NCBI GenBank assembly: GCA_900771805.1
Contig: CAAGPL010000045.1
Coordinates: forward strand, 70,856 to 134,855
DNA: 64,000 nt
From: Bacilli bacterium
GTDB taxonomy: Bacteria; Bacillota_I; Bacilli_A; RF39; UBA660
Direction: 5' to 3'
The position numbers and the translations under genes were made by a program. The notes beneath the pieces are model-generated. The model worked only from the letters and a program-made list of their open reading frames with translations, did not search any database and was not told where the DNA came from. Within the stretch, counting starts at the first letter, position 1; every line of letters begins with the position of its first letter. Positions 4,097 through 24,831 of this stretch are shown one piece after another.

Positions 4097-4098
4097 TT

Positions 4099-5474: not shown

Positions 5475-5492
5475 TATCTCACCTCCAAAACT

Positions 5493-5813: not shown

Positions 5814-7611
5814 TTCTTTCCCTCCGAATTAAATAGTCATTTATATTTTCAGAAGATACAATATCATATTCATCTTCATTTTCTTTATCTTCATAAATAT
5901 CTTCATTACCATTAATTTTATAATAATCAATATTTATTGTTGCAACTGCTTTAGTAACTTTCCCATGAATGTATGGGCAAGCACCACCTATTAAGGATTG
6001 TTTTACGTTTGGATGTTTTAAAACATCATACTTGTAATCCTTAATAGGCCTTTCACCCCTTATAAAAAGTAAAGCATACTTGTTATCCAATCTTGCTATT
6101 TCATCTGCTGTCATTAGTTCTCTTCCAGCAATCTGATAATTAGTCGAATAATTACCACTTCTTCCGCTAGACTTTCCATAAGTATTAGTATCAATTGTTT
6201 CTTTTCCTAAAAGTTCGCTTGCATATTTATGAACAGATTGTTCATTTCCACCAAGGTATAAAAATTCATCACAATTTCCTATAATACTTTCCCACTGCTT
6301 TTCAAATAAGGCTTTTAGTTGTGCTAGGTTTTGCAATATTATAGATACAAATACCTGCCTAGATCTCATTACAGACAAAATCTTTTCAAAATCATTAGGT
6401 AAACTAATATTAGCAAACTCGTCCATCAAGAAATGAACAGGTATTGGTAAACCGCCATCATATTTATAGTCTGCTAAATAAAACAATCTCTGAAACAGTT
6501 GGGTATATAATATACTTACCAAAAAATTAAAAGAAGAATCATTATCTGGTATTATTGCAAACAAAGCAACTTTTTTATCTCCAAAATCATCTAAATCCAG
6601 TTCATCTGTTGAAGTTAAAGATGCAACAGTGCTTAAATTAAATTTTTCCAATTTAGAAATTAAAGTTATTTGTATAGATTTTAATGTTTTACCCGAACCA
6701 CTATGATAATTTTTATAATATTTAACTGCTATGTGATCTGGATCTTTTTCTTCTAATCGTTGGAATAACATATCAAGAGGACTTACATACATATCATCGT
6801 CCTCTTTTACATCACCATATCGTAGCATTTCCATAACCATTGAAAAATTCTGTTCTTCTTCTGGGGCTTCATACTTAAGATAAAATATAAGTGCTGATAA
6901 TAACATAGAAGCAGCCGTATCCCAAAATGGATCAGAAGTAGTTCCTGTCTTAGGCGTTGTTGATTTAAATATATTTGTTACTAGTTTTTGAACATCATTA
7001 TCACTATTTACGTACTTAATAGGATTATAACAATGACTTTTGTCCATATTTATTAAGTCTAAAACTCTAACCTTGTAACCTTTTTGCTTTAAAAAACCTC
7101 CAACTGATCTTACAATTTCTCCTTTAGGATCTAAAACTACATATGAAGTATTTGCTTGAAGTATGTTAGGTATGCAGTAAAATCTAGTTTTACCTGCACC
7201 AGAACCTCCAATTACTACGGTATTTAAATTTCTTCTATGTATTTTCCCATTTAATCCAATAGCCACTCTTCTTGTTAAAATTTTATTATTGTTATATGGT
7301 TTTTGAAAATATTTATTTTTAACGTTGGATATTAAACCCCATTTTGCTGAGCCGTATTCTTCTGTTTTTCTATAATTTTTTCTTGTAAAAGTATATACTC
7401 CAATTATGAATACATATATTATTAAAAATAAAAATATCGTTTTTGGAGTAGTACTAGTCCATGTTATTTCAAATGGATTACTTATAATTATTGGAAATAC
7501 TCTCATTAGTTCCACTAGACCTTTATCAATGTATGGTGCTAGCCCAATTGCTAACCAAATACAAGGTATCATTCCAAAAAGATACAAAAACAAATCTTTA
7601 TTATCTTTCAT
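5803..7611 (-). CDS. Type IV coupling protein (VirD4/TraG family)
   Basis: 602 aa; two N-terminal TM helices; Walker A GGSGAGKT; Walker B FLMDEF. Confidence 0.85.
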   Translation of the reverse strand: MKDNKDLFLYLFGMIPCIWLAIGLAPYIDKGLVELMRVFPIIISNPFEITWTSTTPKTIFLFLIIYVFIIGVYTFTRKNYRKTEEYGSAKWGLISNVKNKYFQKPYNNNKILTRRVAIGLNGKIHRRNLNTVVIGGSGAGKTRFYCIPNILQANTSYVVLDPKGEIVRSVGGFLKQKGYKVRVLDLINMDKSHCYNPIKYVNSDNDVQKLVTNIFKSTTPKTGTTSDPFWDTAASMLLSALIFYLKYEAPEEEQNFSMVMEMLRYGDVKEDDDMYVSPLDMLFQRLEEKDPDHIAVKYYKNYHSGSGKTLKSIQITLISKLEKFNLSTVASLTSTDELDLDDFGDKKVALFAIIPDNDSSFNFLVSILYTQLFQRLFYLADYKYDGGLPIPVHFLMDEFANISLPNDFEKILSVMRSRQVFVSIILQNLAQLKALFEKQWESIIGNCDEFLYLGGNEQSVHKYASELLGKETIDTNTYGKSSGRSGNYSTNYQIAGRELMTADEIARLDNKYALLFIRGERPIKDYKYDVLKHPNVKQSLIGGACPYIHGKVTKAVATINIDYYKINGNEDIYEDKENEDEYDIVSSENINDYLIRRERNEK

Positions 7612-7613
7612 AA

Positions 7614-8288
7614 TTATTTTTCTTTTACTTTCTTTATTCTTTTAGATTTAAAATCATTTGATTTAGATGATCCTCTTTTATCAATGGTTTTCTTCAACTC
7701 TTTTAAATCTTTTCTAACAGAAGGCTTTTCATCCTTCTTATAGCCCTCCCTTGAACAATCTGAGGAAATATCGGACTGAGGGCTTTTCTCCGTTTCCTTC
7801 TTGGGGTTTAATGGTTCATTTTTCTCTTTTGTTAGTTCTTCCTTTTCTTTTGATTTTTCAGACTTAATTGTTGCTGATTCGAAAAATCTTTCAAATATAC
7901 GATTGATTTTAGCAGCGTCTTCAGCTCTTACGATTATATCAACCATACCATCTTTTTTAGATTGTTTCTTATCAAACAAAACATTATATAAAACTCCATA
8001 TTTTTTTGCTTCTTTAACAAATGTTTTTAAGTCCTTTTCTGACAATGTAAACACCTTTAATTCTTTCCCTGATTTAATCATATTATTTAAAGTTGTTTTA
8101 CCTCTTGATTTTGTTTTATCTTTTGATATTGCAATTAATATTGCCCCAATATTTTTAGCTGCCGATCCAGTAACTTTAAGAGCCATTTCAGTTCCTTGTA
8201 ATGTCATTTTTACCATAGTTTCAGCAGCATCACTTGATGAGTTCATCTTTTTGCACCTCCTTACTATTTTCTTTCTCAAAGTCATCAA
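7614..8288 (-). CDS. PcfB-like (DUF3801) conjugation protein; real start probably an internal Met
   Basis: Lies between relaxase and coupling protein. N-terminal domain TLQGTEMALKVTGSAAKNIGAIL...YGVLY...DIIVRAEDAAKINRIFERF, then a Lys/Glu-rich tail. Confidence 0.6.
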   Translation of the reverse strand: MMTLRKKIVRRCKKMNSSSDAAETMVKMTLQGTEMALKVTGSAAKNIGAILIAISKDKTKSRGKTTLNNMIKSGKELKVFTLSEKDLKTFVKEAKKYGVLYNVLFDKKQSKKDGMVDIIVRAEDAAKINRIFERFFESATIKSEKSKEKEELTKEKNEPLNPKKETEKSPQSDISSDCSREGYKKDEKPSVRKDLKELKKTIDKRGSSKSNDFKSKRIKKVKEK

Positions 8289-9591
8289 TATTTTTCTTAA
8301 TTTTGCTTAAAGAATTATCTATTTCTTCACACATTTTCACCTTCTTTCTAATTTTCTTTATTTCTTCATATGTTGATTTAATTTCATTTTGAAGTTCATC
8401 TTTTTCAGTAAGATTTAAAGTTTTATTATACTTGATACATAATTTACTTCTTTTATCCACAAGCAAATTTAATTTCTCATCCACTTTCTTGAAATATGAA
8501 AAAAATTGCTCATAAGTTGTAATTTTATTACTTACAAGCAATTTCGTTTGATTAGATATACTTTCCATTTTTTTAATATCAGCTCTAATGTTTGCAGATA
8601 ATCTCTGACGGGGATATTGTTTTGGAAAAACCTTAAGCAAATAACAATAATACAGATATAATCCATATATTCCGTGATTTTTGTTTCTTTTCTTTGGCAA
8701 AAGATTTCTATTATTTTTCTTAATCCCATACTCCTCCATAAAAGGAATTCTTGTATGTTGCGTTTCTTCAATTCTTTCTTTAATTCTATTAATACTATAA
8801 TCTTTTCCAAAATTTCTTTCTAACCTGATATTTTTATTATATGGGGTTCTCCTTATACTCAAAATATTATTACCTCTATAAATAATCTTATAGTCCATCG
8901 CTTTCATTAGATTTTCAAAGTCTTTATATGAATAAGCTTGTCCGATTGCTCTATCTACATCAGCCTTTGCGGTAGTATAATAATTATCATTAGAAGTGTA
9001 TTTTAAATAATAGTTCTCATAATTTATCTTACTTCTTTTACAAGGTTTTTCTTTAAGAATTGATAATCCATACTCTTCACATAATTCATCTGATAATCGT
9101 CTTAATTTTGCATAATTAATTCTATTATCATAATACTTCTTACCATCTTTAAAAGATACTGAGTTTATTACAAAGTGATTATGTATATGATTGGTATTAA
9201 CGTGCGTAGATACCATAACTTCAAATCTATCACCCCACATTTCTTCAGCAAGTCTAACACCTATCTCATGTGATAATTCTGGTGTAACTTCATTTTCCTT
9301 AAATGATTGAAATGAATGAAAACCTAAAATTCCTTTTGTTTTATTATAACTTTTTTTAGTTAACATCATATCTTCATAAGCATTTTCTTCACAACAATTA
9401 ATTCCAGAAACATAATATTTTTTTTCATTCTTAATATCTATATTTGAATATTCATCAATAGAATGAAGTTCATTATACACATCCTTTATATAATCTTCAT
9501 TAATTGTTTTTTCGGGGTCTGTTATATAATCTATTACATGATCTAATCTTTTATCTATTTTCCATATACCAGTAGTTGCAATCATTATCAC
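8230..9591 (-). CDS. Relaxase/mobilisation nuclease
   Basis: 453 aa; histidine-triad motif STHVNTNHIHNHFVIN near the N-terminus; MobC gene upstream. Confidence 0.8.
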   Translation of the reverse strand: MIMIATTGIWKIDKRLDHVIDYITDPEKTINEDYIKDVYNELHSIDEYSNIDIKNEKKYYVSGINCCEENAYEDMMLTKKSYNKTKGILGFHSFQSFKENEVTPELSHEIGVRLAEEMWGDRFEVMVSTHVNTNHIHNHFVINSVSFKDGKKYYDNRINYAKLRRLSDELCEEYGLSILKEKPCKRSKINYENYYLKYTSNDNYYTTAKADVDRAIGQAYSYKDFENLMKAMDYKIIYRGNNILSIRRTPYNKNIRLERNFGKDYSINRIKERIEETQHTRIPFMEEYGIKKNNRNLLPKKRNKNHGIYGLYLYYCYLLKVFPKQYPRQRLSANIRADIKKMESISNQTKLLVSNKITTYEQFFSYFKKVDEKLNLLVDKRSKLCIKYNKTLNLTEKDELQNEIKSTYEEIKKIRKKVKMCEEIDNSLSKIKKNIDDFEKENSKEVQKDELIK

Positions 9592-9633
9592 CTCTTTTCA
9601 AAGAAAAAAAGAACTCATCAATCTGATAAGTTC

Positions 9634-10053
9634 TTATAAGAATTTATATTGCATATATTTGCATTTTATATATATATTATTGTATTTGCTATAATCTTTT
9701 TCATTGCCTTTAAAACCACTTACATTAGAAAAATAATAATTTCCATTTTTGTATTCTAGAGTAACACCATTCATCTTTTCATTTTTATGTTTCATAGAGG
9801 GCAAATGACAAATCAATATATCTCCAAAAAATAATTGTAGATTTTTTCCATTACTTCCTTCTATATACATAACAGCTCGTGACTCTTCTTCATCATTAGC
9901 GTAACTCTTTCCTGTTATATAATGCAAACTCTGAATATATGCATCTCTAAAATCAAAATTATTAATAATGTTTTCAACACCTAACTTATGATTTATATCA
10001 TCCCATCCCATTTGTAAAATCTCCTTTTTAGATTCCCCATATATTCTTAACAA
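9634..10053 (-). CDS. Hypothetical 139-aa protein inserted between mobC and relaxase
   Basis: ORF with no recognised motif; same strand as its neighbours. Confidence 0.55.
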   Translation of the reverse strand: MLRIYGESKKEILQMGWDDINHKLGVENIINNFDFRDAYIQSLHYITGKSYANDEEESRAVMYIEGSNGKNLQLFFGDILICHLPSMKHKNEKMNGVTLEYKNGNYYFSNVSGFKGNEKDYSKYNNIYIKCKYMQYKFL

Positions 10054-10072
10054 TATAAGTATAACATTTTTT

Positions 10073-10435
10073 CTATCTATTATCTACGGGTAATAATATT
10101 TTCTTTCTAACCTCAATAATAAAATTATTTAGTTTTTTTACCTCATTTTTGTACGTATTGACATCAACAAAATTTAATGAATTAGCTCTCCTAGCTATTT
10201 GATTCAAATTATTTCCTATTGCTCGTAATTCCTTCATCATATCATAAAACCTATCATCGGGTTTTTCTTTTGGCTCATATCCAATTATAAGGTTTCTTAT
10301 TAATTCCGATTCGTTAATTCCAGCCTTTTTTGACTTCTTTTTTAAATATGTTGCCTCTTCTCTATTAAGCCATACTTGTTTTTTTATTTGTCTATTCCTC
10401 ATCGCTGGAATCCTCACTTGATTTATATTCTTCAT
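10073..10435 (-). CDS. mobC: MobC-family relaxosome accessory protein
   Basis: 120 aa; characteristic LRAIGNNLNQIARRAN motif. Confidence 0.8.
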   Translation of the reverse strand: MKNINQVRIPAMRNRQIKKQVWLNREEATYLKKKSKKAGINESELIRNLIIGYEPKEKPDDRFYDMMKELRAIGNNLNQIARRANSLNFVDVNTYKNEVKKLNNFIIEVRKKILLPVDNR

Positions 10436-10532
10436 ATTTATTTAATCTATTTATTTGTATACAACACATAAACATTGTTGCTATTATTCCTCCTATTAAA
10501 GTTCCAATCATAAAAAATAATAATTCTCTCAT
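10392..10532 (-). CDS. Possible 46-aa single-TM peptide (not in ORF track)
   Basis: My translation: MRELLFFMIGTLIGGIIATMFMCCIQINRLNKYEEYKSSEDSSDEE. A GAAAGGAAG Shine-Dalgarno lies 6 nt upstream. The 3' end overlaps the mobC start out of frame. Confidence 0.35.
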   Translation of the reverse strand: MRELLFFMIGTLIGGIIATMFMCCIQINRLNKYEEYKSSEDSSDEE

Positions 10533-10565
10533 TTTAATCTTCCTTTCTAATTTTATTTTTTTAAT

Positions 10566-10605
10566 AGTGGGGATTGGGGTTTCCCCATAAGAATATTTAT
10601 GGGAG
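10566..10605. promoter_or_regulatory. GC-rich overlapping hairpins, candidate oriT
   Basis: TGGGGA(10568-73)/TCCCCA(10582-87) and CCCATAA(10584-90)/TTATGGG(10597-603) share the CCCC run. They lie in the only sizeable non-coding gap of the relaxosome region. Confidence 0.35.
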
Positions 10606-10651
10606 TAAATATTCAGTGCTGGCTAGGACATAAAATACAACTATTCTAGTG

Positions 10652-11614
10652 TCATATTCTATCCCCAATATCTGTTTTTTGTAATTTATTATATTGTAAT
10701 GTCCTTAAAAGATAATCATTATAATCCTTACCATATAAAGGTGGATTATTAATTACATTATAAGATGTTGATAATGCAATTTTTATTGCACTCGCCGAAG
10801 AAATACCTGCTTTATCATTGTCAAGATGAAGTACTACATTTGATATTTCTTTATGATGGTTAAAAAATGTTTTTAATGCAGATGGTACTTTACTTTCTTC
10901 TATTTTTGCTGACGGGTTGTAAACTCCAGCTAAAGATAACATAAAATGCTCTCTCCAATTTTTATTATTCATTTTAAGAAGTGTAGCAAAAGATAACAAA
11001 TCTATTGCACTTTCAAATATATGAACAGTATCTGAGTTTTCCACAGCATTAATTTTAAATGAATAGTTTTTGTCACTACCATACGCATCCTTTAAATACC
11101 TTACACCTTTAGTGCCACGTATCCCAGCGTATCTTATTATGGAGCTATAATCAGCTCCAATAAATACAACGTTGTTATTTATATCTTCATAAATTGTTTC
11201 ATTATATATGCAATAATTTATTATCTCCCTATCTATACCTCTTTTTTCTAAATAAGAAATAGCAATATCATTATTAACATTACGTTTGGGTAATACTAAT
11301 TTATTTTTATTTTTTCTAATAATTGGTCTATTTTCTAGTGTTGGATTAATCTCTAAACAATTTAAAAGATGAGAAACGGCCTCAGTAAAACTATACTTCT
11401 CTACTTTTATTAAGTATTCTAATGCTGTTTTACCACCTATATTTTGTGAAAACCAATACCACATACCATTGCTTATTTTTAAACTATCATGACTTCTAGT
11501 AACGTAAGTATTTCTACTGAAATGAACTAATTCATCAACATTATAATTTTTCAAATAAGTATATAAATCCAATCGTTTTACCTTAATTATGTCTTCTTTA
11601 GAAAAATAACTCAT
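10652..11614 (-). CDS. Toprim-domain primase-like protein (DUF3991/Toprim type)
   Basis: 320 aa; Toprim-like HIFESAIDLLSF and LHLDNDKAG motifs; adjacent to SSB. Confidence 0.7.
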   Translation of the reverse strand: MSYFSKEDIIKVKRLDLYTYLKNYNVDELVHFSRNTYVTRSHDSLKISNGMWYWFSQNIGGKTALEYLIKVEKYSFTEAVSHLLNCLEINPTLENRPIIRKNKNKLVLPKRNVNNDIAISYLEKRGIDREIINYCIYNETIYEDINNNVVFIGADYSSIIRYAGIRGTKGVRYLKDAYGSDKNYSFKINAVENSDTVHIFESAIDLLSFATLLKMNNKNWREHFMLSLAGVYNPSAKIEESKVPSALKTFFNHHKEISNVVLHLDNDKAGISSASAIKIALSTSYNVINNPPLYGKDYNDYLLRTLQYNKLQKTDIGDRI

Positions 11615-11631
11615 TATTTATACCACTCTTT

Positions 11632-11973
11632 TTAGAATCTTTGACTCACTTCCGATTTGTGTCGGTCTTTTGAAGTTAAGAATGTTACTCTTTCACCTGT
11701 TATTACTATTTTTTTATTATTCTCGCTATCAAAATTTGGTTCTAGTTTTCCTCTTATTCCAAGCATATCTCCCTTCTTACAATAATTTGAAGTGGTTTCG
11801 GCTACATTATTCCACAATGTACAATCTATAAAATCAACATCATTCTCTCCATTAGAATTTTTATAATTTCTAGGGACTGCTATCGTTATATTTGATACTT
11901 TTTTTCCATTTTCTAATTCTACTATCTCTGGGTCCTTTGCAAGTCTTCCTATTAAAACAAATTGATTTAACAT
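11632..11973 (-). CDS. ssb: Single-stranded DNA-binding protein (short, ICE-borne)
   Basis: 113 aa; OB-fold start MLNQFVLIGRLAKDPE; no long acidic tail. Confidence 0.8.
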   Translation of the reverse strand: MLNQFVLIGRLAKDPEIVELENGKKVSNITIAVPRNYKNSNGENDVDFIDCTLWNNVAETTSNYCKKGDMLGIRGKLEPNFDSENNKKIVITGERVTFLTSKDRHKSEVSQRF

Positions 11974-11974
11974 A

Positions 11975-12301
11975 TTATAATTCCTCCTTTATTTGTCTAT
12001 TTTTTGTTAATAAGTCATAATAATCATAAGAAGTTTTTTCCTCTGATTTTAAATTATTAATTAATAAAAACATCAATTGTGATGCTTCTGATAAAAATAA
12101 TCTAATCACAACTGATGTCTTAGAACCTTCCTCGTTTGGAATGCTATATTTTAAAATTTTTTCTTTTAAGTTTTCGCCAACGTTGTTAGAATTATCTAAG
12201 ATTGATAAAACATTGTTAAACATATCAATAGTTAATTCTAATTTAATCGGCGGAATTCTTTTTTTATAAGATATAATATCACTTCCTTTCATTAATTTCA
12301 C
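11975..12301 (-). CDS. Hypothetical 108-aa ICE protein
   Basis: ORF packed between the sortase and ssb genes; no motif recognised. Confidence 0.55.
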   Translation of the reverse strand: MKLMKGSDIISYKKRIPPIKLELTIDMFNNVLSILDNSNNVGENLKEKILKYSIPNEEGSKTSVVIRLFLSEASQLMFLLINNLKSEEKTSYDYYDLLTKNRQIKEEL

Positions 12302-12902
12302 ATGTAATTATTAGTTGTTTATTAGTGTTGTGAACACATGTAACTAATATAAGTTCTTTTGAAGAAATAGAATTACTAATCTTTAATTTTCCCGTTTTTT
12401 CTATTTCTTTTATATTGTTAACCTTGTAAGAGTAACTTTTTCCTTTATAAAACACTATAACATTGTCATTAATATTAAGCCTATTTAAATTTTTAAAATA
12501 TGATATCTTACTAGTTCCGGAATGAGCATAAAGAATCAATCTTCCTTCTACATCAGGAAAAGTACTTGTTTGATCAGCACTTATTGCATAATTAATTGAT
12601 TTAAAGTTCTTCGTCGCCATGACAATGCCTTTTCTTAACTTTATTTTTGGTATTTCTAATACTGCTATATAATTTAACTTATTCGATTTTAAACTTACAT
12701 TCTTTTTAACATCTTGAGAAGTATTAATTATTTGATCATAATTATTTATGTAAGTTTCTATAATTTCTTTATCTTTTTTGTTACTTATATAATTAAAACC
12801 TATAATATATATAACAATAAAAATTCCAATTAGTAATAAAAGAACTCCTATTGAGTATAAAATACTATTTTTCTTTTTTAACATTCTTTTTGTGTTTAGC
12901 AT
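12279..12902 (-). CDS. Sortase (ICE-encoded)
   Basis: 207 aa; N-terminal TM anchor; catalytic His context LYAHSG and Cys context LILVTC. Confidence 0.8.
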   Translation of the reverse strand: MLNTKRMLKKKNSILYSIGVLLLLIGIFIVIYIIGFNYISNKKDKEIIETYINNYDQIINTSQDVKKNVSLKSNKLNYIAVLEIPKIKLRKGIVMATKNFKSINYAISADQTSTFPDVEGRLILYAHSGTSKISYFKNLNRLNINDNVIVFYKGKSYSYKVNNIKEIEKTGKLKISNSISSKELILVTCVHNTNKQLIITCEINERK

Positions 12903-15384
12903 AAGTTATAATTACAACTCCTAGTACTATTAAAGTACATGGTATTAAAATTTTTAAAAAGTTAAAACTTGCATCAGTATTTGGAACTTCGATTATCAAT
13001 TCATCTTCTAAAGTGGCTTTAATTATTTCACCATTTTCTTTAATGCTAAAATACTGACGTTCAGGATTTATTTTATAGTTCTTTGGTGCTTCTTTTTCAA
13101 TCAAATAATAGTCATTTACAGGTAAATCATCTATTACTATTTTGCCATTTGCATCAGTTATTCCAGAGAAAATCAATTCATCTTTAGTTGTATAAATTTC
13201 TATCTTAGTATTAGGTAATGGTTTTCCTGTGGATAAATCTATTTTAGTAAAATCTAAAGTTCCCTTCTTATATTTGTTTAATATATCAAATGATTTAGTC
13301 ACGACTTCTGTATATTGATCCTTATAAGTAAGCTCAAAATCATATTCTTTAGTATCTAATACCAAATTATCATTAGGTACTGATAGTTCTTTTATATAAT
13401 ATTTTCCAAGAAACAAGTTATCAAGTTCAGCAACACCTTCATCATTTGTATAAATTGTAGATATTAATTCATTCTTTTTGTAATGTTTTTTTCCATCTTT
13501 TGTTATAATATCTTCTCTTGCATATATACCGAATTTTACACCTTCTAGTGATACCTCTTCATAAGAATAAGATCCGTTTTTAATAATCAATTTTTCTCCA
13601 GTTTTATTTATTGTTACTTTCCCTTTAACTTGTTGATTTTTAAATTTAACTAGAATCATTGTTCCGTAATCGTTATCTGTTATAAGTTCGGAATTTTCTC
13701 CTATTTCAAACTCCATAGAATTTGAATTCCATAAATAACCATCAATTTTTTGATCTATTTCTTCAAGACGATATTTACCAGATTTAAGTGCATAAGGTGT
13801 AATAAACTCACCATTTTCATTTGTTTCAAATTCACATATTTTTTGAGCATTTGGATAAGTAACATTTTGACATACATATTCATTGTTTTGTAAATCAAAT
13901 ATTTTGAATTTAATACCGGACATTTTTATTACCTCTTTAGAATCAGCGTCTATTTTAACAACTTTTAATTTTGCTTTAATTTCAGCATTTGATATTAAAT
14001 GATAATATGGTTCTTCGGTATTTTCGTTTATAGTTATTTCAAAATCTTCTATTTTTTCATGATTTAATGTAGATGATACTTGTTTAACAATGTATTTCCC
14101 ATAAGGTAACACTGCTTCAGCATATCCTTTCTCATTGGTTGTAATTCTTGCTACTTTTTTATTTGATGATTTTAAATAAATATCAAAAGAAACGTTTGGT
14201 TCACCAATTAAGAAACCCGTTTTATCTGTTGCAAAAACCTTAAATAAATCAAAATGTCTTTCGATTACTTTTTCATAAACAGTAACTGTTGGATATAAAT
14301 TATCTTTTGTAATTACAAAATAATATCTATTATCAGTATCTAATTCATAACCTTGTGAGGGTGTCTCTTCTTGTAAATAATATCTACCTTGAGATGGTAA
14401 AGTTCCACTTGTTACAATTCCCTTATCATTGGTTGTAATAGAAGATACTTTTGTACCATCTTCTTTATAAATACCATAAGTTGCACCTTTTAATGTTGCA
14501 TCACCTTGAGGTACTGATAACTTTGTATCTTTATCAACTTTATTTATTGTTACTTTACCACCAATTGATTTAATCTTTAAAGATACTCTATATGGATCTA
14601 TGTTACCCGCGGTCATCAAATTTTGAACTCCATCCGCAACAAAAACAAATGCACTCTTTCCAAATCGATTAGAATTTTTAGATAACTGAATTGTAATATC
14701 TCCAACTTTATTAGGCGTAATATAAAGTTTATTACCATCTTTTTTTATTGTTGCGTTATCATTTGTTGATACTTCATAATTACTTAATACATTATTTGTA
14801 TCATCTAAAACTATCGTATCATTTACTACAACAGTATTATTACTATTTGCAAATGATGGTGCTTTATAATGATTATTTACTAAATTCAATAATTCTGCTG
14901 ATTCAGATTCAAACTGTGAAATATTATTTCCATGAAAACTATCAGCCCAATACGTATCCCAACCTAAAGGGTTTGCTTTCCAAATTTCATATTGAGTTAT
15001 TGCGTACCATTTACTATCAGTATGATTACCATATCCATATCCATAATAAGCTAGTAACGTAATTCTACGCCAAGTATCTATACTCATTCCAGATACATCA
15101 GATTGATTATAATCATATCCTGTAAGTGTTGCACTATCTGAAAAATCAATACCTGGTTCAATACAATATGCAATCTCCGAATCACTACGTTTGTGATAAA
15201 CTTGGATTCTCTCTGATCTTTCTACTCCATTTTTATATTTATTTACATAAATCTTTGGTGTAATCCATTCAAAATAGAATGAATCACTAGTTAATGCTTT
15301 AGCTTTTGTAGTTGCAATTAGCGAAACTATTCCAAACAAAAAAATGGGAAATACCCATTTTAATTTTTTTATAATTTTTTTCAT
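12865..15384 (-). CDS. Cell-wall-anchored thioester-domain adhesin with repeated CnaB/SpaA-like domains
   Basis: 839 aa. It has a signal peptide, then AYCIEP and AITQYEIW (Cys-Gln thioester motifs). Repeated GKVTINK/VVKIDADS modules follow. The C-terminus is VPNTDAS, a hydrophobic helix and a KHKKNVKKEK tail. Confidence 0.75.
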   Translation of the reverse strand: MKKIIKKLKWVFPIFLFGIVSLIATTKAKALTSDSFYFEWITPKIYVNKYKNGVERSERIQVYHKRSDSEIAYCIEPGIDFSDSATLTGYDYNQSDVSGMSIDTWRRITLLAYYGYGYGNHTDSKWYAITQYEIWKANPLGWDTYWADSFHGNNISQFESESAELLNLVNNHYKAPSFANSNNTVVVNDTIVLDDTNNVLSNYEVSTNDNATIKKDGNKLYITPNKVGDITIQLSKNSNRFGKSAFVFVADGVQNLMTAGNIDPYRVSLKIKSIGGKVTINKVDKDTKLSVPQGDATLKGATYGIYKEDGTKVSSITTNDKGIVTSGTLPSQGRYYLQEETPSQGYELDTDNRYYFVITKDNLYPTVTVYEKVIERHFDLFKVFATDKTGFLIGEPNVSFDIYLKSSNKKVARITTNEKGYAEAVLPYGKYIVKQVSSTLNHEKIEDFEITINENTEEPYYHLISNAEIKAKLKVVKIDADSKEVIKMSGIKFKIFDLQNNEYVCQNVTYPNAQKICEFETNENGEFITPYALKSGKYRLEEIDQKIDGYLWNSNSMEFEIGENSELITDNDYGTMILVKFKNQQVKGKVTINKTGEKLIIKNGSYSYEEVSLEGVKFGIYAREDIITKDGKKHYKKNELISTIYTNDEGVAELDNLFLGKYYIKELSVPNDNLVLDTKEYDFELTYKDQYTEVVTKSFDILNKYKKGTLDFTKIDLSTGKPLPNTKIEIYTTKDELIFSGITDANGKIVIDDLPVNDYYLIEKEAPKNYKINPERQYFSIKENGEIIKATLEDELIIEVPNTDASFNFLKILIPCTLIVLGVVIITYAKHKKNVKKEK

Positions 15385-15420
15385 CCTTTCCTCCTTAAAA
15401 AAAATGCTCTTATATGAGCA

Positions 15421-15978
15421 TTAATTAACATTGTGCCAATCTATTGTACTATTATTATCATCATACAAAGATAGCATCCAATAAGTTTTTCCACATTCAT
15501 CAGTTAAACTATCACAATTATATCCATATCTACCTAAATATGAATTTCCTTTATTAACACATTCACCTCTTGATTCAAAATCAGGTCTAAACCAAGAAAA
15601 TGCAAACTTTTTAGGTGTACATGATTTTGTTGTAGTAACAATTTTTGTAGTAGTAACTGGTTGTGTAGTAGTCTGTTGTTGTTTTCTTTTTACAGTTGTT
15701 GTTTTATTGGCTTTAACCGTTGTTTTATTTTTTTCTGATGTTGTCTTAGAAACCTGATCATCATTCTTTTTTGTAGTTGATATTGTCGATTCTTTGGTAT
15801 CTTCACTATCAGGTTTTTCAATATTTTTGCTTGTTTTTTCTTTATTTGTTTTTGATGTTGTAGTTTTATTTTGAATAGATGAGGTTGTTTTTTTTGAATC
15901 AACACACAATAGAATTACACCCAATATTGCAAATAACAAAAATATTGTTATAACTATAATCAAAATTTTCTTTTTCAT
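15421..15978 (-). CDS. Membrane-anchored/secreted Thr/Lys-rich protein with Cys-containing C-terminal domain
   Basis: 185 aa; N-terminal TM, low-complexity linker, and a C-terminal ~70 aa with 4 Cys. Confidence 0.6.
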   Translation of the reverse strand: MKKKILIIVITIFLLFAILGVILLCVDSKKTTSSIQNKTTTSKTNKEKTSKNIEKPDSEDTKESTISTTKKNDDQVSKTTSEKNKTTVKANKTTTVKRKQQQTTTQPVTTTKIVTTTKSCTPKKFAFSWFRPDFESRGECVNKGNSYLGRYGYNCDSLTDECGKTYWMLSLYDDNNSTIDWHNVN

Positions 15979-16138
15979 AAAATTTCTCCTTGTCTTTAAT
16001 TAGTTAGAGCATAACATTAAAATTTCTTTTTTGTCAAACTTTGTAATGAATTTAATATCTTTTTCAGTTAGTAATATATAGTTAGTAATAATATAGGGGT
16101 AGGTTGTAGGGAGGGGAAATATGTAAATAATACTCCCA

Positions 16139-17071
16139 CTATCTTTCCCTATCTTTACATCTTTGTAAATACTTATTGTAATAATCCAATGCTTTAAATA
16201 TATACTCCTTATACTTTGTCGGTGGCATATTTTTTGGCATCTTACTTTTTAAACTTCTCATTTCCAATTTTAGTTTTTCAACTTGATTAGCTTTCTCTTG
16301 AGATAATATTTCATCCACTTTTTGTTGAGTTAAATTACCATCCTGACTTAATCTTTTTAACTGCTGGGATTGTGATAAAGATGGTGTAGCTAAATTTTCT
16401 TCTATACTATCTAAAAACCAATCTTGTTCTTCTTTAGTAAGAAATGATATTTCAACTGCTGGAGAAAAAGCTATTTTTTCTTCATCTACCATATCAAGTA
16501 AGGGTTTAATTAATTTAGTAAGACGTATATATCTTTGAATTTGTCTAGCACTATCTCCAACCTGATTAGCTATTTTAGAATCAGTACGATACTTCGTGCC
16601 AACTTGGCACGAAGATAAATATGTCTTCTTCCCTTGATGTTTTTCAGCTTCTAATTTCATTTGATAAGCAAAGGCTTTTTCACTTGGTAAGATATGTTCT
16701 CTTTGCAAATTACTATCTACCATTGCAATTATTGCTTCATCATTACTTAAATTTCTAACAATGCAAGGAATTGTATATTTATCTGCTAATTTACTTGCGT
16801 ACATTCTTCTATGACCAGAAATCACTTCATACCTACCATTATTTTTTGGTCTAACTAATATAGGTGAAATAACTCCTTTTTCAACAATACTATCACGCAA
16901 GTTATATAAATCTTCGTTTTCTACGACATTAAAAGGATGATTTGGAAAACTATCTATATCATCAATATTAATATCTTTAATCCTTTCTAGATCTTTTTCT
17001 TGTCTTTCCTGTTCTGTTGTAAATATGTCATCTAATCTCGAAAGTGGCATTCTTTGATAGCTCTTTTCCAT
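16139..17071 (-). CDS. parB: ParB/Spo0J-superfamily protein, ICE/plasmid type
   Basis: 310 aa; ParB N-terminal box ISGHRR; overlaps the parA end. Confidence 0.8.
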
Positions 17072-17852
17072 TATCTAAAACCTCCTTTGCAAACGACGAA
17101 TAAGCGTCTGCAACTTTACTTTTCTTTTGGTACGAAAATATACTTTTTCCATAAGAAGTTGACTCCGCTGTCTTTATTGCTATTGGAATATAAGTGTTAT
17201 AAATCTTTAAATGATCTCCATAATCTCTTTTCAATTGTGTTTTAACTTGTTTTGATAAATTTGTTCTATCATTAACTAATGTGAATAGAATACCATCTAT
17301 CTTTAATTTTGGGTTTATACGGCGTTTAACACGCGAAATTGTATTAATTAGATGTATCATACCTTTAGCAGCTAAAAACTGGCTCTGAACCGGTATTATT
17401 ACACTATCAGCACATGCAAGTGCATTAATAGTTATCATTCCTAAACTAGGCATACAATCTATAATTATATAATCATATTTTTCCTTTAATGGAATTAAAC
17501 AATTTTTCAATGTATATTCTCTACTCATAGCATTAACTAAAGACATTTCTAATGCAGATAAATCTAAATTAGATGGTATTAAGTTAACACCTTCTTTATG
17601 ATGCAATATAGATTTACTTATTTGTATATCCTTATCTTCAATAGCTTGTCCCATTATATCAGCCAATGTAATTGGTATTTCATCTTGTTTATACCAACCC
17701 ATACAGGTTGTTAGATCACCTTGAGGATCAGCATCTACTAAAAGTACCTTTTTACCTTGTGATGCTAAAGCAACACCCAAATTAAAAGTGGTTGTCGTTT
17801 TTCCAACTCCTCCTTTTTGGTTTGCAATAGCTATAATTTTACAGTTTTTCAT
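17028..17852 (-). CDS. parA: ParA/Soj-family ATPase, ICE-borne
   Basis: 274 aa; deviant Walker A KGGVGKTT. Confidence 0.85.
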
Positions 17853-17931
17853 ATATTAATTACCTCCTTGTATAACTCAAAAATACTTACTTAACAAACA
17901 TCAGCCTTTGTTACTTAGTGCAGAATTTATG

Positions 17932-17966
17932 AAAAAAACACCAATTTTTATTAAATTTGGTGTTTT
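17932..17966 (-). terminator. Rho-independent terminator at the ICE right end
   Basis: Minus strand reads AAAACACCAAATTT-loop-AAATTGGTGTTTTTTT; lies between the yabG fragment and parA. Confidence 0.7.
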
Positions 17967-18019
17967 GATACATATAATCTATATTTTAGAATTTCCTTAT
18001 TTTATAAGGGTTTCAGGGC

Positions 18020-18352
18020 TTATTTTGAAACTGAACTTGTTAAAATATCAGCGTCTATATGCAAAATTTTTCCAGGAATATAAAAAAAATCACTTCTTTC
18101 AAAATTTCTAATGGTTCTCATTTTTTCATAAAAAACAAGGTCGTCATCTAAATCAATATTATCAACTAAAACCAAATCATTTATTTTACTATCAGCACAT
18201 AATCTCACATTTATTCCTTTTAAATAAGCAGTATCTTCTTCTATTTTATATATTTTAAATATTACATCATTTTCATAAGATTTTCTTGTAACCACGCTAC
18301 CTACTTGAAACAACTTTATCACCCAATTAAATATATGCAAAAAAAAAATCAA
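18020..18352 (-). pseudogene. yabG: yabG (sporulation cysteine protease) 5' fragment, truncated by the ICE
   Basis: VGSVVTRKSYENDVIFKIYKIEE... and FFYIPGKILHIDAD parallel B. subtilis YabG GDMVARKSYQMDVLF and FHMPGKVLHLDGD. The frame then gives 8 unrelated residues and a stop. The position after rsmA matches Bacillus synteny. Confidence 0.75.
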
Positions 18353-18355
18353 ACA

Positions 18356-19177
18356 TTACTGTTTGATTAATTCGTTTGAAATTTCTATAAATTCTTCTAT
18401 TGTTATATTCTCCGCTCTATAATTAATATCCTTACCAAATTTATTTAAAGTATAATTTATTTTGTCTATATCAAAATCCTTTAAATTATTTTTCAAAGTT
18501 TTTCTTTTTTGCTTAAACGCTTTTCTTACAATTAAGAAAAACATATTTTCATCTATAGCCTTTAATTTATTTTTCTTTTTATTAAATAAAACAACTGCTG
18601 AATCAACATTTGGTTTAGGATAAAAAACATTTCTACTTACCATAAATGCTTTTTTTATATCAAAGTAATAATTTAAAAATATTGTTAAAGAATTGTAATT
18701 CTTACTTCCTATTACCGCACTAAAACGATCTGCAACTTCATTTTGAACCATTACTATTATCTTTGATACATCTATTTTTTCATTTATGAATTTAGATATT
18801 ATAGGAGTTGTTATATAATATGGTAAATTAGCAACTACCATTAAATTATCATATTTATATTTTTGTAAATCTTGCTTTATATTTCTATTTAAAAAGTCAT
18901 CAAAAACAACATCAACATTTTCATACTCATCTAATATTATTTTTAAAGGATCTTTTAAAGTTTTATCTATTTCATAGCCTAATACATTTTTTGCTTTAAG
19001 ACTTAATTTTTTGGTCAATGCTGCTGCTCCAACACCTATTTCAATAACAAGTGTATCTTTTGTTATTTCTGCTAAATCAACAATATTATTTAAAACATTT
19101 TGATCAAGCAAAAAATTCTGACCAAATTTTTTTTTAAAAGTAAAATTATTCTTATTTAAAATATCTTTAGTATTCAT
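18356..19177 (-). CDS. rsmA: 16S rRNA (adenine1518/1519-N6)-dimethyltransferase
   Basis: 273 aa; FKKKFGQNFL start and IEIGVG SAM motif. Confidence 0.9.
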   Translation of the reverse strand: MNTKDILNKNNFTFKKKFGQNFLLDQNVLNNIVDLAEITKDTLVIEIGVGAAALTKKLSLKAKNVLGYEIDKTLKDPLKIILDEYENVDVVFDDFLNRNIKQDLQKYKYDNLMVVANLPYYITTPIISKFINEKIDVSKIIVMVQNEVADRFSAVIGSKNYNSLTIFLNYYFDIKKAFMVSRNVFYPKPNVDSAVVLFNKKKNKLKAIDENMFFLIVRKAFKQKRKTLKNNLKDFDIDKINYTLNKFGKDINYRAENITIEEFIEISNELIKQ

Positions 19178-20986: not shown

Positions 20987-21487
20987 TTATTCTTCGAAAT
21001 AACTTTCTAATATATTTAAAGTAAATGAAATTAGATCTATTTCACTAGTAATTTTTGAAGTATCATCTATAATAAGATATCCTACTAAATCCCCACAAGG
21101 ACATATTTTATATAATTTATAATTTTTACTTAATTTTAAATCTTTACAAAATAATACACCAGATTCTTTTGGTTGAAACATTTTATTTTCAAAATCTAAA
21201 ATCAGTTTTTTTCCTACCGCATTATATAAATTTGAAAATACAATTTCATCTAAATTAGTAATAAAAACATTTGTTTTTATTTTGCTAGCTAAAACTTTTA
21301 CAATTTTATTAATAAAATCTTGTTTTTCATTTATTGTATTATGTTTCCTTAAAGATATAACATTTATATCTTCCATATATATTTCTAACAATTCTCCTTT
21401 TTTTATATGCATTTTATTTCTTATTTCTTTTGGTATTACAATTCTTCCTAACTCATCTATTCTTCTAGTTATTCCTGATATTTTCAT
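20987..21487 (-). CDS. spoVT: Stage V sporulation regulator SpoVT (AbrB-type N-domain plus sensor domain)
   Basis: GITRRIDELGRIVIPKEIR matches the SpoVT/AbrB swapped-hairpin motif; 166 aa; lies downstream of mfd as in B. subtilis. Confidence 0.8.
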   Translation of the reverse strand: MKISGITRRIDELGRIVIPKEIRNKMHIKKGELLEIYMEDINVISLRKHNTINEKQDFINKIVKVLASKIKTNVFITNLDEIVFSNLYNAVGKKLILDFENKMFQPKESGVLFCKDLKLSKNYKLYKICPCGDLVGYLIIDDTSKITSEIDLISFTLNILESYFEE

Positions 21488-21531: not shown

Positions 21532-24500
21532 TTATTCAATTACATCAAGCATTTTTACTAAATAATGTAAAAAATGCTTTTCCAAGTCACTTGTTTTTAG
21601 TGATATCCTTAAAATATTATTAATATATCTGATTTCAAAATTTTGATTTATCCTAAATAAACCAGATAAAAGTTTTGCACCATCTTGTCTTTTTGACACA
21701 ACACTCGTTATAAAAACAGATATTTCCCTTTCTGTTTGGACTACTTTAAATACACCCTTTTTCTTAGCATTATATTCAAATAATTCTTCTAACATATAAA
21801 TAATTATGTCATCATCAAGATTTCCAAATCTATCTGTTAATTCTTCTTTTACTTTAATAAATTTATCATAACTATCAATTGTATTTATTTTCTTATGAAT
21901 CTCTATTTTTAAATCCTCACTGTCAGCATATTTATCACTAATATGAGTTGCAACTTCTATAAATGGTTTTTCATTTATATCTTTTTCTTCATCTTCTTCT
22001 ACAGAAACATTATTTTTAAGTCTTTCTACTTCTTCATTTAATATTTTAAGATACATATCATAACCAATAGTATCTATAAATCCAGATTGTTCAGCTCCTA
22101 AAATGTCACCTGCTCCTCTAATTGCTAAATCACGCATTGCAAGTGCATAACCACTTCCTAATTCCGTAAATTCCTTTATAGCATCTAACCTTTTTACTGC
22201 TATATCATTTAACTCTTTATTTTTTTTATACATAAGATAAGCATATGCTATTACCTTTCCTCTTCCTATTCTACCTCTTATTTGATATAACTGACTAAGT
22301 CCAAAATGATCAGCATCCAAAACTATTAAAGTATTTGTATTTTCAATATCAATTCCTGTTTCTATTATAGTTGTACATACTAATACATTATAAGTTTTAT
22401 CAACAAAACTTTCCATTGTTTTTTCAATTTGATCTTTTGTCATTCTACCATGTATATAAGTTATCTTAGCTTCTGGAACTAATTTTTTTATTTTTACTAG
22501 TTTATCTTCTATATCTAATACCTTATTATATAAAACAAACACTTGTCCATCTCTTGCTAATTCTTTATAAATAGCATCTCTTATAACCTGGTCATTTTCT
22601 TTTAAAACATAGGTTTGAATTGGATATCTATAAGCAGGTGGTGTTTCAATTAAAGATAAACCTCTAACACCTGTTAAAGACATTTGAAGAGTTCTTGGAA
22701 TTGGTGTTGCAGATAATGTTAAAACATCTATATTTTCCTTATATTCCTTTATTTTTTCCTTATGAGTTACACCAAAACGTTGTTCCTCATCTACTACTAA
22801 TAAGCCCAAATCTTTATAAATAACATCACGGCTTAATAATCTATGAGTTCCAACTATCAAATCTACCTTACCACTTTTTAGTTCATCTAATATAATTTCC
22901 TTTTGCTTTAAAGTAACAAACCTATTAAGCATTCTTATATTTATGCCAAAACCATCAAATCTTACAACAGCATTATCATAATGTTGCTTAGATAATATTG
23001 TTGTAGGACATAAAAACGCTACTTGTTTACCACTTTTTATTGCTTTAAAAATAGCTCTAAAAGCAACTTCCGTCTTACCATAACCAACATCACCACATAA
23101 TAACCTGTCCATTGGATGAGGCTGTTCCATATCTTCTTTTATATCATTAATTGCTTTTAATTGATCTTTTGTTTCTGTATACGGAAATTTACTTTCAAAT
23201 AAAGTTTGATCCTCATCGTCAGCAAAGAAAGCAAAACCTTTTACTAATTTTCTTTTAGCAGAAGTTTCAAGTAATTTTTTTGCTATATCTTTTACTTTTC
23301 CTTTTACTCTTGCCTTTTGTTTAACCCACTCAGTTCCCCCTAATTTGTTCAATCTAGGCTTTATACCTTCGTTAGATGAATACTTGCTAATATATTCTAT
23401 TTTTGAGGCTGGAATATATAATTTATCCCCATCCTTATATTCTATATTTAAATAATCCTTTTTAAGACCTTTTGATGTAAGAGTTATAATTCCTAAATAT
23501 CTTCCAATACCATGAGACATATGAACTACATAATCACCAACTTTTAGCTTATTGATATCTTTTATTTTAGAACCATATTTAAATTTACTTTTATAAGAAT
23601 TAATATCAGTTGCTTTATATAATTCATTTTTTGTTAAACAAACTAAGTCATTAATGATAAAACCATTTGGAATTTCATCTTTTATAATATTTATAATATC
23701 TTTTTTTAAATCCAATTTATTTGTTATAACACTTGGTAATGTTATATTACTAATAAAACTTGCTATTGCATGATCATCATTTAAATATAAAACTATCATT
23801 TTTTTAGAATCTAACATATTCTTAAGAAAATGATTAATTCTATCATAATTACCATTAAATTTATCAATTTCTGCAGATGAATAAATTTCTTTTTTTCCAT
23901 CTTTCACATCATAATTATCTAATTTTAAAATGTCTACATATTTATCTTTTATAATATCATTTAAATCAAACATGTATTTATCTATATTAAATTGATCAGT
24001 CTCTTTAAATTCTAATACTTCATTAATAGTATTTTCATATGCAAGTTTAATACTATTTAAATCTACATAAATAGTTATATTATCATCTAAGTAATCTTCT
24101 ATTTTACTTACATTTTTAACAACTCTTGGCAACAGACTCTGTCTTTCGATAATCCCTTCTATATTTTTTTCATTTATAAACTCAGTAAAAGGACATATTT
24201 CTATTGTTTCCTTTTTTTGCATCGAAAGTTGCGTATCTGGATTAAATTCACGAATACTTTCTATTTCATTATCAAAAAATTCTATTCTAATTGGATTTTC
24301 ATTGCCATAAGGAAAAACATCTAATATATAACCTCTATTTGCATATTCACCTGTTTTTGTTACTATACTATCTTTTTTGTAACCAATCATATTTAACTTT
24401 TGAATTAATAAATCTCTATTGATTTCATCTTTTTCTTTTAGATTTATATTTAAATTACTCCATAATTTTTTACTAGGTAAAAACCTTAAATAACCCATAA

Positions 24501-24831
24501 AATTAGTTATAACTATTTTACCAACATTATTTTTAACAAGTTCATTTAATGTTTCTATCCTCTTAGACATTAAATCTGGAGATATTGCAACAGCTTCACT
24601 AACTAAAAAATCATCCATTGGAAACAATAAAACTTTATCTTTATCATATTGATTTAATGTTTTATAAAGCATATTAGCTTCATATAAAGTATTTGTAACT
24701 ACCAGTAAATTCTTTTTACTTACACAAAAAAGATCCCAAACATAAATAGGTTGGGTTACTTTATTAATACCAAGTACCATCACTTTTGTATTATTAGTTA
24801 AAATTTTATGTTCAAAAATTTCTTCAAACAT
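21532..24831 (-). CDS. mfd: Transcription-repair coupling factor
   Basis: 1099 aa; helicase motifs GDVGYGKTEV and DEEQRFG. Confidence 0.95.
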   Translation of the reverse strand: MFEEIFEHKILTNNTKVMVLGINKVTQPIYVWDLFCVSKKNLLVVTNTLYEANMLYKTLNQYDKDKVLLFPMDDFLVSEAVAISPDLMSKRIETLNELVKNNVGKIVITNFMGYLRFLPSKKLWSNLNINLKEKDEINRDLLIQKLNMIGYKKDSIVTKTGEYANRGYILDVFPYGNENPIRIEFFDNEIESIREFNPDTQLSMQKKETIEICPFTEFINEKNIEGIIERQSLLPRVVKNVSKIEDYLDDNITIYVDLNSIKLAYENTINEVLEFKETDQFNIDKYMFDLNDIIKDKYVDILKLDNYDVKDGKKEIYSSAEIDKFNGNYDRINHFLKNMLDSKKMIVLYLNDDHAIASFISNITLPSVITNKLDLKKDIINIIKDEIPNGFIINDLVCLTKNELYKATDINSYKSKFKYGSKIKDINKLKVGDYVVHMSHGIGRYLGIITLTSKGLKKDYLNIEYKDGDKLYIPASKIEYISKYSSNEGIKPRLNKLGGTEWVKQKARVKGKVKDIAKKLLETSAKRKLVKGFAFFADDEDQTLFESKFPYTETKDQLKAINDIKEDMEQPHPMDRLLCGDVGYGKTEVAFRAIFKAIKSGKQVAFLCPTTILSKQHYDNAVVRFDGFGINIRMLNRFVTLKQKEIILDELKSGKVDLIVGTHRLLSRDVIYKDLGLLVVDEEQRFGVTHKEKIKEYKENIDVLTLSATPIPRTLQMSLTGVRGLSLIETPPAYRYPIQTYVLKENDQVIRDAIYKELARDGQVFVLYNKVLDIEDKLVKIKKLVPEAKITYIHGRMTKDQIEKTMESFVDKTYNVLVCTTIIETGIDIENTNTLIVLDADHFGLSQLYQIRGRIGRGKVIAYAYLMYKKNKELNDIAVKRLDAIKEFTELGSGYALAMRDLAIRGAGDILGAEQSGFIDTIGYDMYLKILNEEVERLKNNVSVEEDEEKDINEKPFIEVATHISDKYADSEDLKIEIHKKINTIDSYDKFIKVKEELTDRFGNLDDDIIIYMLEELFEYNAKKKGVFKVVQTEREISVFITSVVSKRQDGAKLLSGLFRINQNFEIRYINNILRISLKTSDLEKHFLHYLVKMLDVIE

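Follow-up and report, generated by a model that had tools for sequence, protein, structure and literature searches.

Skin in sigK (SpoIVCA-Skr), SPβ in spsM (SprA/SprB), gin in gerE (GirC/GirX) and skinCd are intervening elements of sporulation genes (PMC4191935; PMC5499854; PMC5595907; PMC5025042; PMC6957869). Elements of this kind are known almost only from mother-cell genes (PMC6957869), and those described are prophages, prophage remnants or small non-viral elements of cultured Bacillus and Clostridium (PMC4191935; PMC5499854; PMC5595907; PMC5025042; PMC6957869). A further element, yin, lies in yabG of Clostridium botulinum V73; it excises and restores yabG, its excision and circularisation, detected by PCR, increased on entry into sporulation, and it is known from a single isolate, its authors having found no second case of an insertion in yabG among public genomes (Douillard et al., 2023; PMC10747680). 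Here we describe an integrative and conjugative element (ICE) that interrupts yabG, the gene for a spore-coat protease, in an uncultured Bacilli bacterium; the 5′-part of the gene and the left end of the element lie in a stretch of 64,000 nucleotides (contig CAAGPL010000045.1, positions 70,856 to 134,855 of the forward strand; assembly GCA_900771805.1), hereafter the window. From comparison with related loci, we regard it as close to certain that this is a reversible insertion brought about by large serine recombinases (LSRs); that excision is coupled to sporulation and rebuilds yabG, as argued by analogy with the systems above, we hold to be somewhat favoured, with a probability of about 0.55.

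The likeness to yin is at the level of the gene: both elements occupy yabG, have at one end an LSR with Resolvase, Recombinase and Zn-ribbon domains, and use a short att core. However, yin is prophage-like and has one LSR, beside the 5′-half of the gene, whereas the element described here encodes a conjugative type IV secretion system (T4SS), has two tandem LSRs beside the 3′-half, and occurs in uncultured gut Bacilli, in many metagenomes and in several hosts. With skin, SPβ, gin and skinCd it shares a position within the coding region of a mother-cell sporulation gene, an LSR unit, and a small adjoining open reading frame (ORF) as a candidate recombination directionality factor (RDF); moreover, a decayed derivative (locus L103; see below) resembles skin in being a mobile element that has decayed yet retains its recombination unit. 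In contrast, those four have a single LSR in place of the conserved pair found here, none is described as a complete conjugative element, and sporulation-specific excision has been demonstrated for them, whereas here it is proposed by analogy. A full-text literature search found no natural ICE in the role of an intervening element of a sporulation gene; what is new here lies in the conjugative nature of the element, its two recombinases and the host clade, together with its wide occurrence in human-gut metagenomes and a skin-like decayed derivative. Conjugative or mobilisable transposons moved by LSRs include Tn4451 (TnpX), Tn5397 (TndX) and the CTn elements of C. difficile, and SCCmec has a recombinase pair, CcrA and CcrB. 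The transposons share with the present element that they are Firmicute mobile elements, moved by LSRs with a 2-bp crossover, the match of its two recombinases to TnpX being to the catalytic domain; the likeness to CcrAB, two different LSRs in tandem, is one of gene arrangement. We know of no report that any of these targets a sporulation gene or reconstitutes a gene. For clostridial LSR transposons, see PMC3714108, as cited in PMC12286644.

On the minus strand of the window the genes run mfd (21532..24831), an AbrB/SpoVT-like gene (20987..21487), tatD, an ORF of 204 aa, rsmA and an ORF at 18020..18352. A first-pass annotation, made from the sequence alone, had read the last of these as the N-terminal part of YabG, cut off by an ICE, and a profile search agrees: the ORF matches positions 1-111 of the 280 of Pfam Peptidase_U57 (PF05582; E 2.8e-17). 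It is a gene fragment and not a functional member of the family; a match to the full profile is regained only after in-silico excision (see below). The features at this boundary are as follows.

18356..19177, minus strand: rsmA (PF00398, E 1e-59), the upstream neighbour that fixes the rsmA-yabG-veg synteny
18054..18313, minus strand: host-derived 5′-part of yabG, which covers codons 1-87, starting at the TTG and ending with the GA of codon 87 (Asp) (PF05582 profile)
18026..18055, no strand: attL, with the crossover GA (18055-18054) and the P′ arm CGCTGATATTTTAACAAGTTCAGTTTCA (comparison of attB, attL and attR junctions)
18020..18053, minus strand: element-encoded end of the truncated ORF, i.e., the C of codon 87, ADILTSSVSK and the stop (tail common to divergent hosts)
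17925..17975, minus strand: terminator-like hairpin followed by U7, immediately within the element (RNA folding energy -12.3 kcal/mol; z -3.81 relative to shuffled sequences)
1..18053, minus strand: left ~18 kb of the ICE, which runs past position 1 of the window (97-100% DNA identity to the copies in loci L001-L020)

The likely start of yabG is the TTG at 18313 (MFQVGS..; MFQVGSVVTRKSY..), in the register of the intact homologs; residues 1-89 of the intact CAG:594 YabG align to 18313..18047 (tblastn), and 23 of the 24 family-conserved columns covered are kept. The YabG-like reading ends with ..PGKILHID, and the GA at 18055-18054 is followed by C + GCT GAT ATT TTA ACA AGT TCA GTT TCA AAA TAA. 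The eight unrelated codons and the stop (18022-18020) noted at first pass are right; strictly, ten codons (ADILTSSVSK) come from the element. The product is a 97-aa N-terminal fragment without the catalytic region. With full-length YabG as the tblastn query, the 64-kb window holds residues 1-89 only, with no second copy of the gene, intact or otherwise, and, as the annotation had stated for this side, no 3′-part of yabG; intact yabG in the clade encodes 248 aa, and the portion absent from the window side is 161 codons, fewer than the ~180 it gave. Also as described there, parA of the ICE (17028..17852; PF13614) is found next to the truncated ORF. The hairpin between them, with its run of seven U, is there too (z -3.8), although "strong terminator" slightly overstates it, as a simple terminator scan made no call at 17925..17975; going by its predicted fold, it would end transcripts coming from the yabG promoter. 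No identical protein is on record for the exact window YabG fragment, P0001, or RsmA.

Uninterrupted copies of yabG were found in numerous related uncultured gut Bacilli (among them "Clostridium sp. CAG:594", UMGS957 and Candidatus Aphodocola) in a scan of GTDB species genomes, of which the best 80 loci, all intact genes, were kept and 79 intact copies extracted. The intact loci read rsmA-yabG(248 aa)-veg, the order found in Bacillus, and the chromosomal flank of the window is 84% identical to that of L052 and 81.5% to the CAG:594 group. A first homology search, in turn, returned almost only proteins of ~97 aa, N-terminal parts 63-81% identical to the window fragment, that end alike in DADI[L/P/S]TSSVSK followed by the stop; a few fragments at contig ends instead continue as true YabG (..HxDGDKEYLxRCLxFYKKANVLAFG..). 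The DNA after the GA is identical throughout L011-L020, and a 62-aa alignment that covers the sequence directly beyond the junction, used as query in a homology search, gave one match. The truncated fragments stand in the context rsmA-yabG′-parA-parB-adhesin..., in 18 contigs of the CAG:594 group; truncated yabG followed by the ICE was also seen in five contigs with a host flank 70% identical to that of the window and in one with a flank 77% identical.

The far end of the element is known from related contigs only, found with the last 161 residues of intact YabG as query and by a metagenome scan with an adjacent recombinase. Both things that the first-pass annotation had proposed to look for there, the 3′-fragment of yabG and a recombinase gene, are present, the former in L102, L110-L113 and L103, the latter as two tandem LSRs adjoining attR in L110-L113, L101 and L103. 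The far-end loci are L101, L102 and L110-L113, and their C-terminal YabG fragments start MSAD/GDKEYL.. (P0094, P0137) or ..YQKTAD/GDPEYL.. (P0096), the slash marking the junction here and below. In L102 and L110-L113 homology to the chromosome begins exactly at the junction, and in L111 (268 kb) and L113 (164 kb) homology to the intact chromosome continues from there onward, the host of L113 being 99.4% identical to L021, which has an intact allele. The catalytic 161 codons, with the GHD and GACQS motifs, and veg therefore lie beyond the far end of the element in these contigs. In L113, LSR1 (547 aa) and LSR2 (525 aa) each have Resolvase, Recombinase and Zn_ribbon Pfam domains, and the pair has the YxRxS serine motifs GYVRLS and SYARLS; the catalytic serine, the Recombinase domain, the zinc ribbon and the length (~450-700 aa) are those of the LSR class. 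In a PDB sequence search LSR1 aligned over its full length with SprA of SPβ, the best match of both proteins was to the catalytic domain of TnpX, and TP901-1 Int was a further match; no relative of LSR2 was found in IMG/VR.

Upstream of the LSRs are a conserved ORF of ~40 aa, two small ORFs, a sigma70_r4-like gene, Xre-type regulators and variable cargo. The ~40-aa ORF (ME/N..ELVLCIYDE..I.E.F.KY..S.VQN..) lies directly upstream of LSR1 (L113, 7400-7520; L101, 5968-6102; L103, 16146-16271). It is kept in all four element variants (see below), the decayed L103 included, is preceded by TCATAnnTTTAA and a ribosome-binding site (RBS), and is, on its position and conservation, a candidate RDF. In L101, a third ORF with a resolvase domain only (9356-9802; 148 aa; YIRVA at the YxRxS position) is found between LSR2 and attR, and in L103 an apparent remnant of the third resolvase (19598-19810; ..VILYLRLSQE..) is fused in frame to the 3′-half of yabG.

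Comparison of empty and occupied sites locates the crossover.

attB (L021): CATGTTGA / TGGTGATAAAGAA
attL (window, L011-L020): CATRTWGA / CGCTGATATTTTAACAAGTTCAG
attR (L113): AAATGTCAGCAGA / TGGTGATAAAGAA
attR as predicted for the genome of the window: AAATGTCAGCAGA / YGGTGATAAAGA

The junction sequence of attB reads ..CATRTWGAYGGTGATAAAGA.. and that predicted for attP ..AAATGTCAGCAGACGCTGATATTTTAAC... The insertion is in codon 87 (Asp) of yabG, in the motif HxD/GDKEYL. The base after the GA is that of the host (T or C) in attR and always the C of the element in attL, even where the host attB has T; this split of the third base of codon 87 between host and element places the exchange at or within the GA. 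For attP, the deduced sequence is CTTTCGACTTACTTAGTAAATGTCAGCA-GA-CGCTGATATTTTAACAAGTTCAGTTTCA, with inner arms symmetric at 9 of 11 positions, a value reached by 0 of 20000 random 28-mers, while the arms of attB are symmetric at 1 of 11. A GA core, a dyad attP and an unrelated, asymmetric attB are the usual LSR layout, the position of cleavage being deduced from the sequences.

Among the contigs compared, none joins a left end of the window type to the LSR end: L001 and L002 stop past an RHS gene and L113 begins in one, the RHS toxin of L113 being 53% identical to that which follows the T4SS genes in L001 and L002; the regulatory module of L111 is 36-63% identical. As the RHS and regulatory modules differ, the family is modular, and the link between left and right ends is given by attL/attR pairs of the same species and by the symmetry of attP, which ties the attL arm of the window to the attR arm of the other contigs. 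Only for the decayed L103 are both ends on one contig.

Joining the two halves of yabG at the GA restored an open gene in each of three in-silico excisions. The 5′-half from L011 and the 3′-half from L113 gave 248 aa, identical to the intact L021 allele at 247 of 248 positions; the 5′-part from the window and the 3′-part from L102 gave an open 248-aa ORF that matches Peptidase_U57 over 1-280 of 280; and the halves from the single contig of L103 gave a match to 1-275 of 280 (303 bits). Recombination of attL with attR at the GA would thus be predicted to restore the 248-aa ORF exactly. A single peptidase U57 ORF had been anticipated from such a join, which proved right, although at 248 aa in this clade in place of ~290. 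With attL in the window, attR and LSRs in contigs of the same species, empty attB sites in sister genomes and the ORF restored in silico, the earlier proposal of a T4SS-bearing ICE inside yabG is borne out.

The left-end DNA of the ICE is 97.6-98.7% identical across hosts, the flanks of which have 70%, 77% and 81% identity to that of the window, and the ICE DNA of the window is 100% identical to L003/L006. No fewer than four host lineages (that of the window and three further ones) have the same ICE, in each case inserted at this GA, and the same attL junction is found in more than 30 independent contigs of several host species. Since near-identical copies occupy the same base pair in hosts that are only 70-81% identical, the ICE has been conjugatively active on a recent timescale, and its distribution is one of recent conjugative spread with strict site specificity. 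A distant ICE variant (L107; eight contigs) occupies the same yabG codon in another species, with parA, parB and adhesin genes ~69% identical and SNF2 cargo. In all, four deeply diverged element variants use one site, namely the window type, L107, L101 and L103 (LSR2 46-57% identical).

The last variant, L103, comes from a distant species (10 contigs; flanks ~67-69% identical to the others) and has the whole element on one contig, in 9,543 bp and without a T4SS. Reading from yabG 5′ (104 aa), there follow a parA remnant, genes for an AMP-binding enzyme and a hybrid histidine kinase, the small ORF, LSR1, LSR2 and yabG 3′. The parA remnant, 143 nt and 71% identical to parA of the window, has a 1-nt frameshift and a P-loop changed from KGGVGKTT to KGRVDKIT; the remainder of parA is deleted, and so are all conjugation genes. 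The two recombinases, in contrast, have kept their full length (LSR1, 535 aa; LSR2, 520 aa), and the joined yabG keeps 73 of the 75 columns that are ≥95% conserved in the 79 intact homologs, both changes falling within the first six residues. With parA decayed and the LSRs and yabG halves intact, selection has preserved the recombination unit together with the split gene as the genes for mobility were lost; L103 argues for a reuse of yabG that depends on excision, in the manner of skin.

The window encodes a SpoIID equivalog (49326..50249, plus strand; TIGR02870, 325 bits against an NCBIfam cutoff of 234.75), and this is evidence that a reduced, uncultured gut lineage of 25% G+C keeps the engulfment machinery. 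There are also a YidC/SpoIIIJ-type insertase and the AbrB/SpoVT-like gene; bofA is found in sister loci and yabG is strongly conserved across the clade. On this gene content, the host lineage is taken to sporulate. In B. subtilis, yabG is controlled by σK. The same is true of yabG in C. difficile (PMC3789822). By analogy with these two organisms, the coding sequence interrupted at codon 87 would be that of a mother-cell gene, and the recombinases expected of an intervening element are present as the LSR pair beside attR in related contigs. In C. difficile, the Tn1549-like genes CD1845 and CD1846 are listed with lower expression in mutants for mother-cell sigma factors (regulon table of PMC3789822), a pattern that hints that genes of conjugative elements can come under sporulation control.

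The promoter regions were compared on both sides.

18328..18337, minus strand: conserved -10-like motif CATATATTTA, in the interval from the rsmA terminator to the yabG RBS, a putative yabG promoter of the mother-cell type (~25 related loci)

The rsmA terminator hairpin (CTAAAC..GTTTAG and a T run) is followed directly by the conserved GCATATATTTA and the yabG RBS (window 18328-18400, minus strand; L021-L053); as the three adjoin, the entire control region of yabG is contained within ~45 nt and conserved across species. The motif CATANNTTTA has just seven occurrences in the window, and the sigma factor assigned to the -10-like motif is a putative one. On the element side, a CATAnnTTTA -10-like motif, which resembles the conserved motif upstream of yabG, lies 3-4 nt before the RBS of the ~40-aa ORF; it is the sole promoter lead for the candidate RDF, and a weak one. 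The search for σE- or σK-type motifs at the recombinase promoter, as had been suggested, turned up this motif and no canonical -35. With the frequency of CATANNNT at chance level, no fit to a -35 and a sigma-70 promoter scan at background, we make no promoter claim.

By analogy with skin, SPβ, gin and yin, the element would be excised in the mother cell, which is terminally differentiating. The LSR pair would act together with a directionality factor, possibly the ~40-aa ORF; production of YabG would then come late in sporulation, with the ICE retained in the chromosome of the forespore. The same excision reaction, under the Xre and sigma-like regulators of the element, could also serve conjugative transfer. 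A developmental use of this kind draws on SpoIID and the conserved yabG, on the four variants at one site, on L103 and on the yin precedent. More tentatively, and at slightly short of even odds, the ICE family as a whole may have been adopted as a developmental switch, in which the LSR pair excises the element in the mother cell, rebuilds yabG and frees a transfer-competent circle before lysis, while the spore inherits the integrated copy; L103 would then represent a "skin" stage, with conjugation lost and the switch kept.

A plain insertional knock-out, the simple alternative, is a serious rival, though well below even odds: the LSRs would recognise a conserved yabG sequence, excision would be rare and serve transfer, and carriers would sporulate without YabG, at a cost offset by cargo and spread. 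Several observations weigh on its side and against sporulation-coupled excision. The spread between species is very recent, as judged from the identities of ICE and flanks, so that intact yabG halves in hosts of the window type carry no information on selection. The insertion is also polymorphic: intact alleles are common in the CAG:594 species group (cluster P0033; 258 members). The regulators are of ICE type (Xre HTH and sigma70_r4-like), the cargo includes RHS toxins and adhesins, and there is no recognisable promoter for σE or σK, i.e., no canonical -35 (ATA for σE, AC for σK), ahead of either the LSR operon or the ORF proposed as RDF. The gene is dispensable for spore formation in the model species B. 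subtilis and C. difficile, of which yabG mutants still sporulate, and a knock-out could therefore be tolerated. In addition, the timing of excision to sporulation is taken from analogy, the link from the window-type left end to the right end with the LSR pair rests on same-species contigs and the symmetry of attP and not on one contiguous sequence, and no attP junction was found in any locus compared or in IMG/VR. A knock-out, however, leaves unexplained why the non-conjugative L103 should keep two intact LSRs of ~530 aa and undamaged yabG halves next to a decayed parA, and why four deeply diverged variants keep one mother-cell gene as target; moreover, the described intervening elements of mother-cell genes, including yin in yabG, excise during sporulation (PMC10747680; PMC5595907; PMC4191935).

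Every variant has an in-frame ATG for the 3′-half (MSAD/GD in L102 and L113; a leader of 21 codons with a good RBS in L101; a leader of 71 codons with a strong RBS in L103), which would allow the split gene to work without excision, the 97-aa N-terminal part being made from the yabG promoter and the catalytic C-terminal part from a start codon of the element, acting together or the latter alone. We consider this very improbable: in the window type no convincing RBS precedes the ATG, which falls within the inverted repeat of attP, the L103 leader resembles a remnant of the third resolvase (YLRLSQE motif) and not a designed leader, and expression would come from the recombinase operon in place of a mother-cell promoter. 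To our knowledge, such an arrangement is without precedent. Lastly, almost all close homologs in the first search were likewise of ~97 aa, as they would be if the gene were naturally a short, stand-alone one for the N-terminal domain, or as if the ICE had been mis-assembled to a yabG fragment. The chance that the insertion is not real in either way is close to nil, given that the same junction recurs in more than 30 independent assemblies from differing samples and assemblers, that genomes of the same species have the gene uninterrupted, and that the complementary 3′-junction exists; the stand-alone gene was rejected when the common C-terminal tail proved to be element DNA.

The part of the ICE contained in the window includes the following genes, in addition to genes for SSB, a DUF3991-Toprim primase, DUF3801 and a CHAP hydrolase.

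17028..17852, minus strand: parA, a P-loop partition ATPase, the first gene inside attL (PF13614 AAA_31, E 3e-61)
16139..17071, minus strand: parB (PF02195 ParB_N, E 4e-20)
12279..15384, minus strand: surface adhesin with SpaA repeats and a thioester domain, and sortase (PF17802, PF08341; sortase PF04203 on the identical L001/L003 protein)
10073..10435, minus strand: MobC/NikA-like accessory gene (PF21983/PF05713 on L003/L006 proteins of the same length)
8230..9591, minus strand: relaxase (MOB) (PF03432 on L003/L006 proteins of the same length, DNA 100% identical to the window)
5803..7611, minus strand: type IV coupling protein, VirD4/TraG-like (PF02534, PF10412, PF12696 on a protein of identical length)
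4638..5474, minus strand: TrbL-like gene (TrbL_2)
3737..4096, minus strand: PrgI-like gene
1425..3740, minus strand: VirB4-like T4SS ATPase (PF19044, PF01935, PF12846; the exact protein is on 16 contigs)

The relaxase (PF03432), coupling protein (PF02534), VirB4-like ATPase (PF19044/PF12846), TrbL_2, PrgI and CHAP hydrolase together make up a conjugation machinery, and the ICE is mobile between hosts by the identities of its left end and their flanks. From composite loci, the full element is estimated at ~35-40 kb. Its cargo is modular between copies. There are RHS/YD-repeat toxins of ~2050 aa with differing C-terminal ends (L001, 17645-22316; L002, 13801-18472; L113, 1-3050); in L113 small genes, putatively for immunity, and a gene for an M23 peptidase come after the RHS gene, and in L111 the same slot holds sugar-nucleotide genes.

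Outside the ICE, the 204-aa ORF in the tatD-rsmA interval (19235-19849, minus strand) has no Pfam or NCBIfam match; its N-terminus resembles a signal sequence, a Thr-rich linker comes next and the C-terminal domain is conserved, and an ORF of 188-207 aa is found at the same place in most related loci. The GC skew changes sign near 40 kb, and a cluster rnpA-yidC/spoIIIJ-jag-mnmE-mnmG-rsmG starts at 40790 (plus strand), which together place the replication origin in the window, with yabG and the ICE only ~22 kb away. The minus-strand genes at 38798..40147 and 37532..38713 we take to be dnaA and dnaN, respectively.

The LSR pair described here is a natural one for which attB, attP and the GA crossover are defined, and is of practical interest for the discovery of recombinase tools. 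Should excision be coupled to sporulation as proposed, a complete and currently spreading ICE with a two-recombinase unit would serve as an intervening element, with a likely path from an active ICE to a remnant that is only a switch, and yabG would become a repeatedly used target in place of the single-isolate case of 2023. The hosts belong to an uncultured lineage of the gut, close to Clostridium sp. CAG:594, about which little is known; in them, horizontal transfer would then be tied to the maturation of the spore coat, and perhaps to germination and host-to-host transmission.

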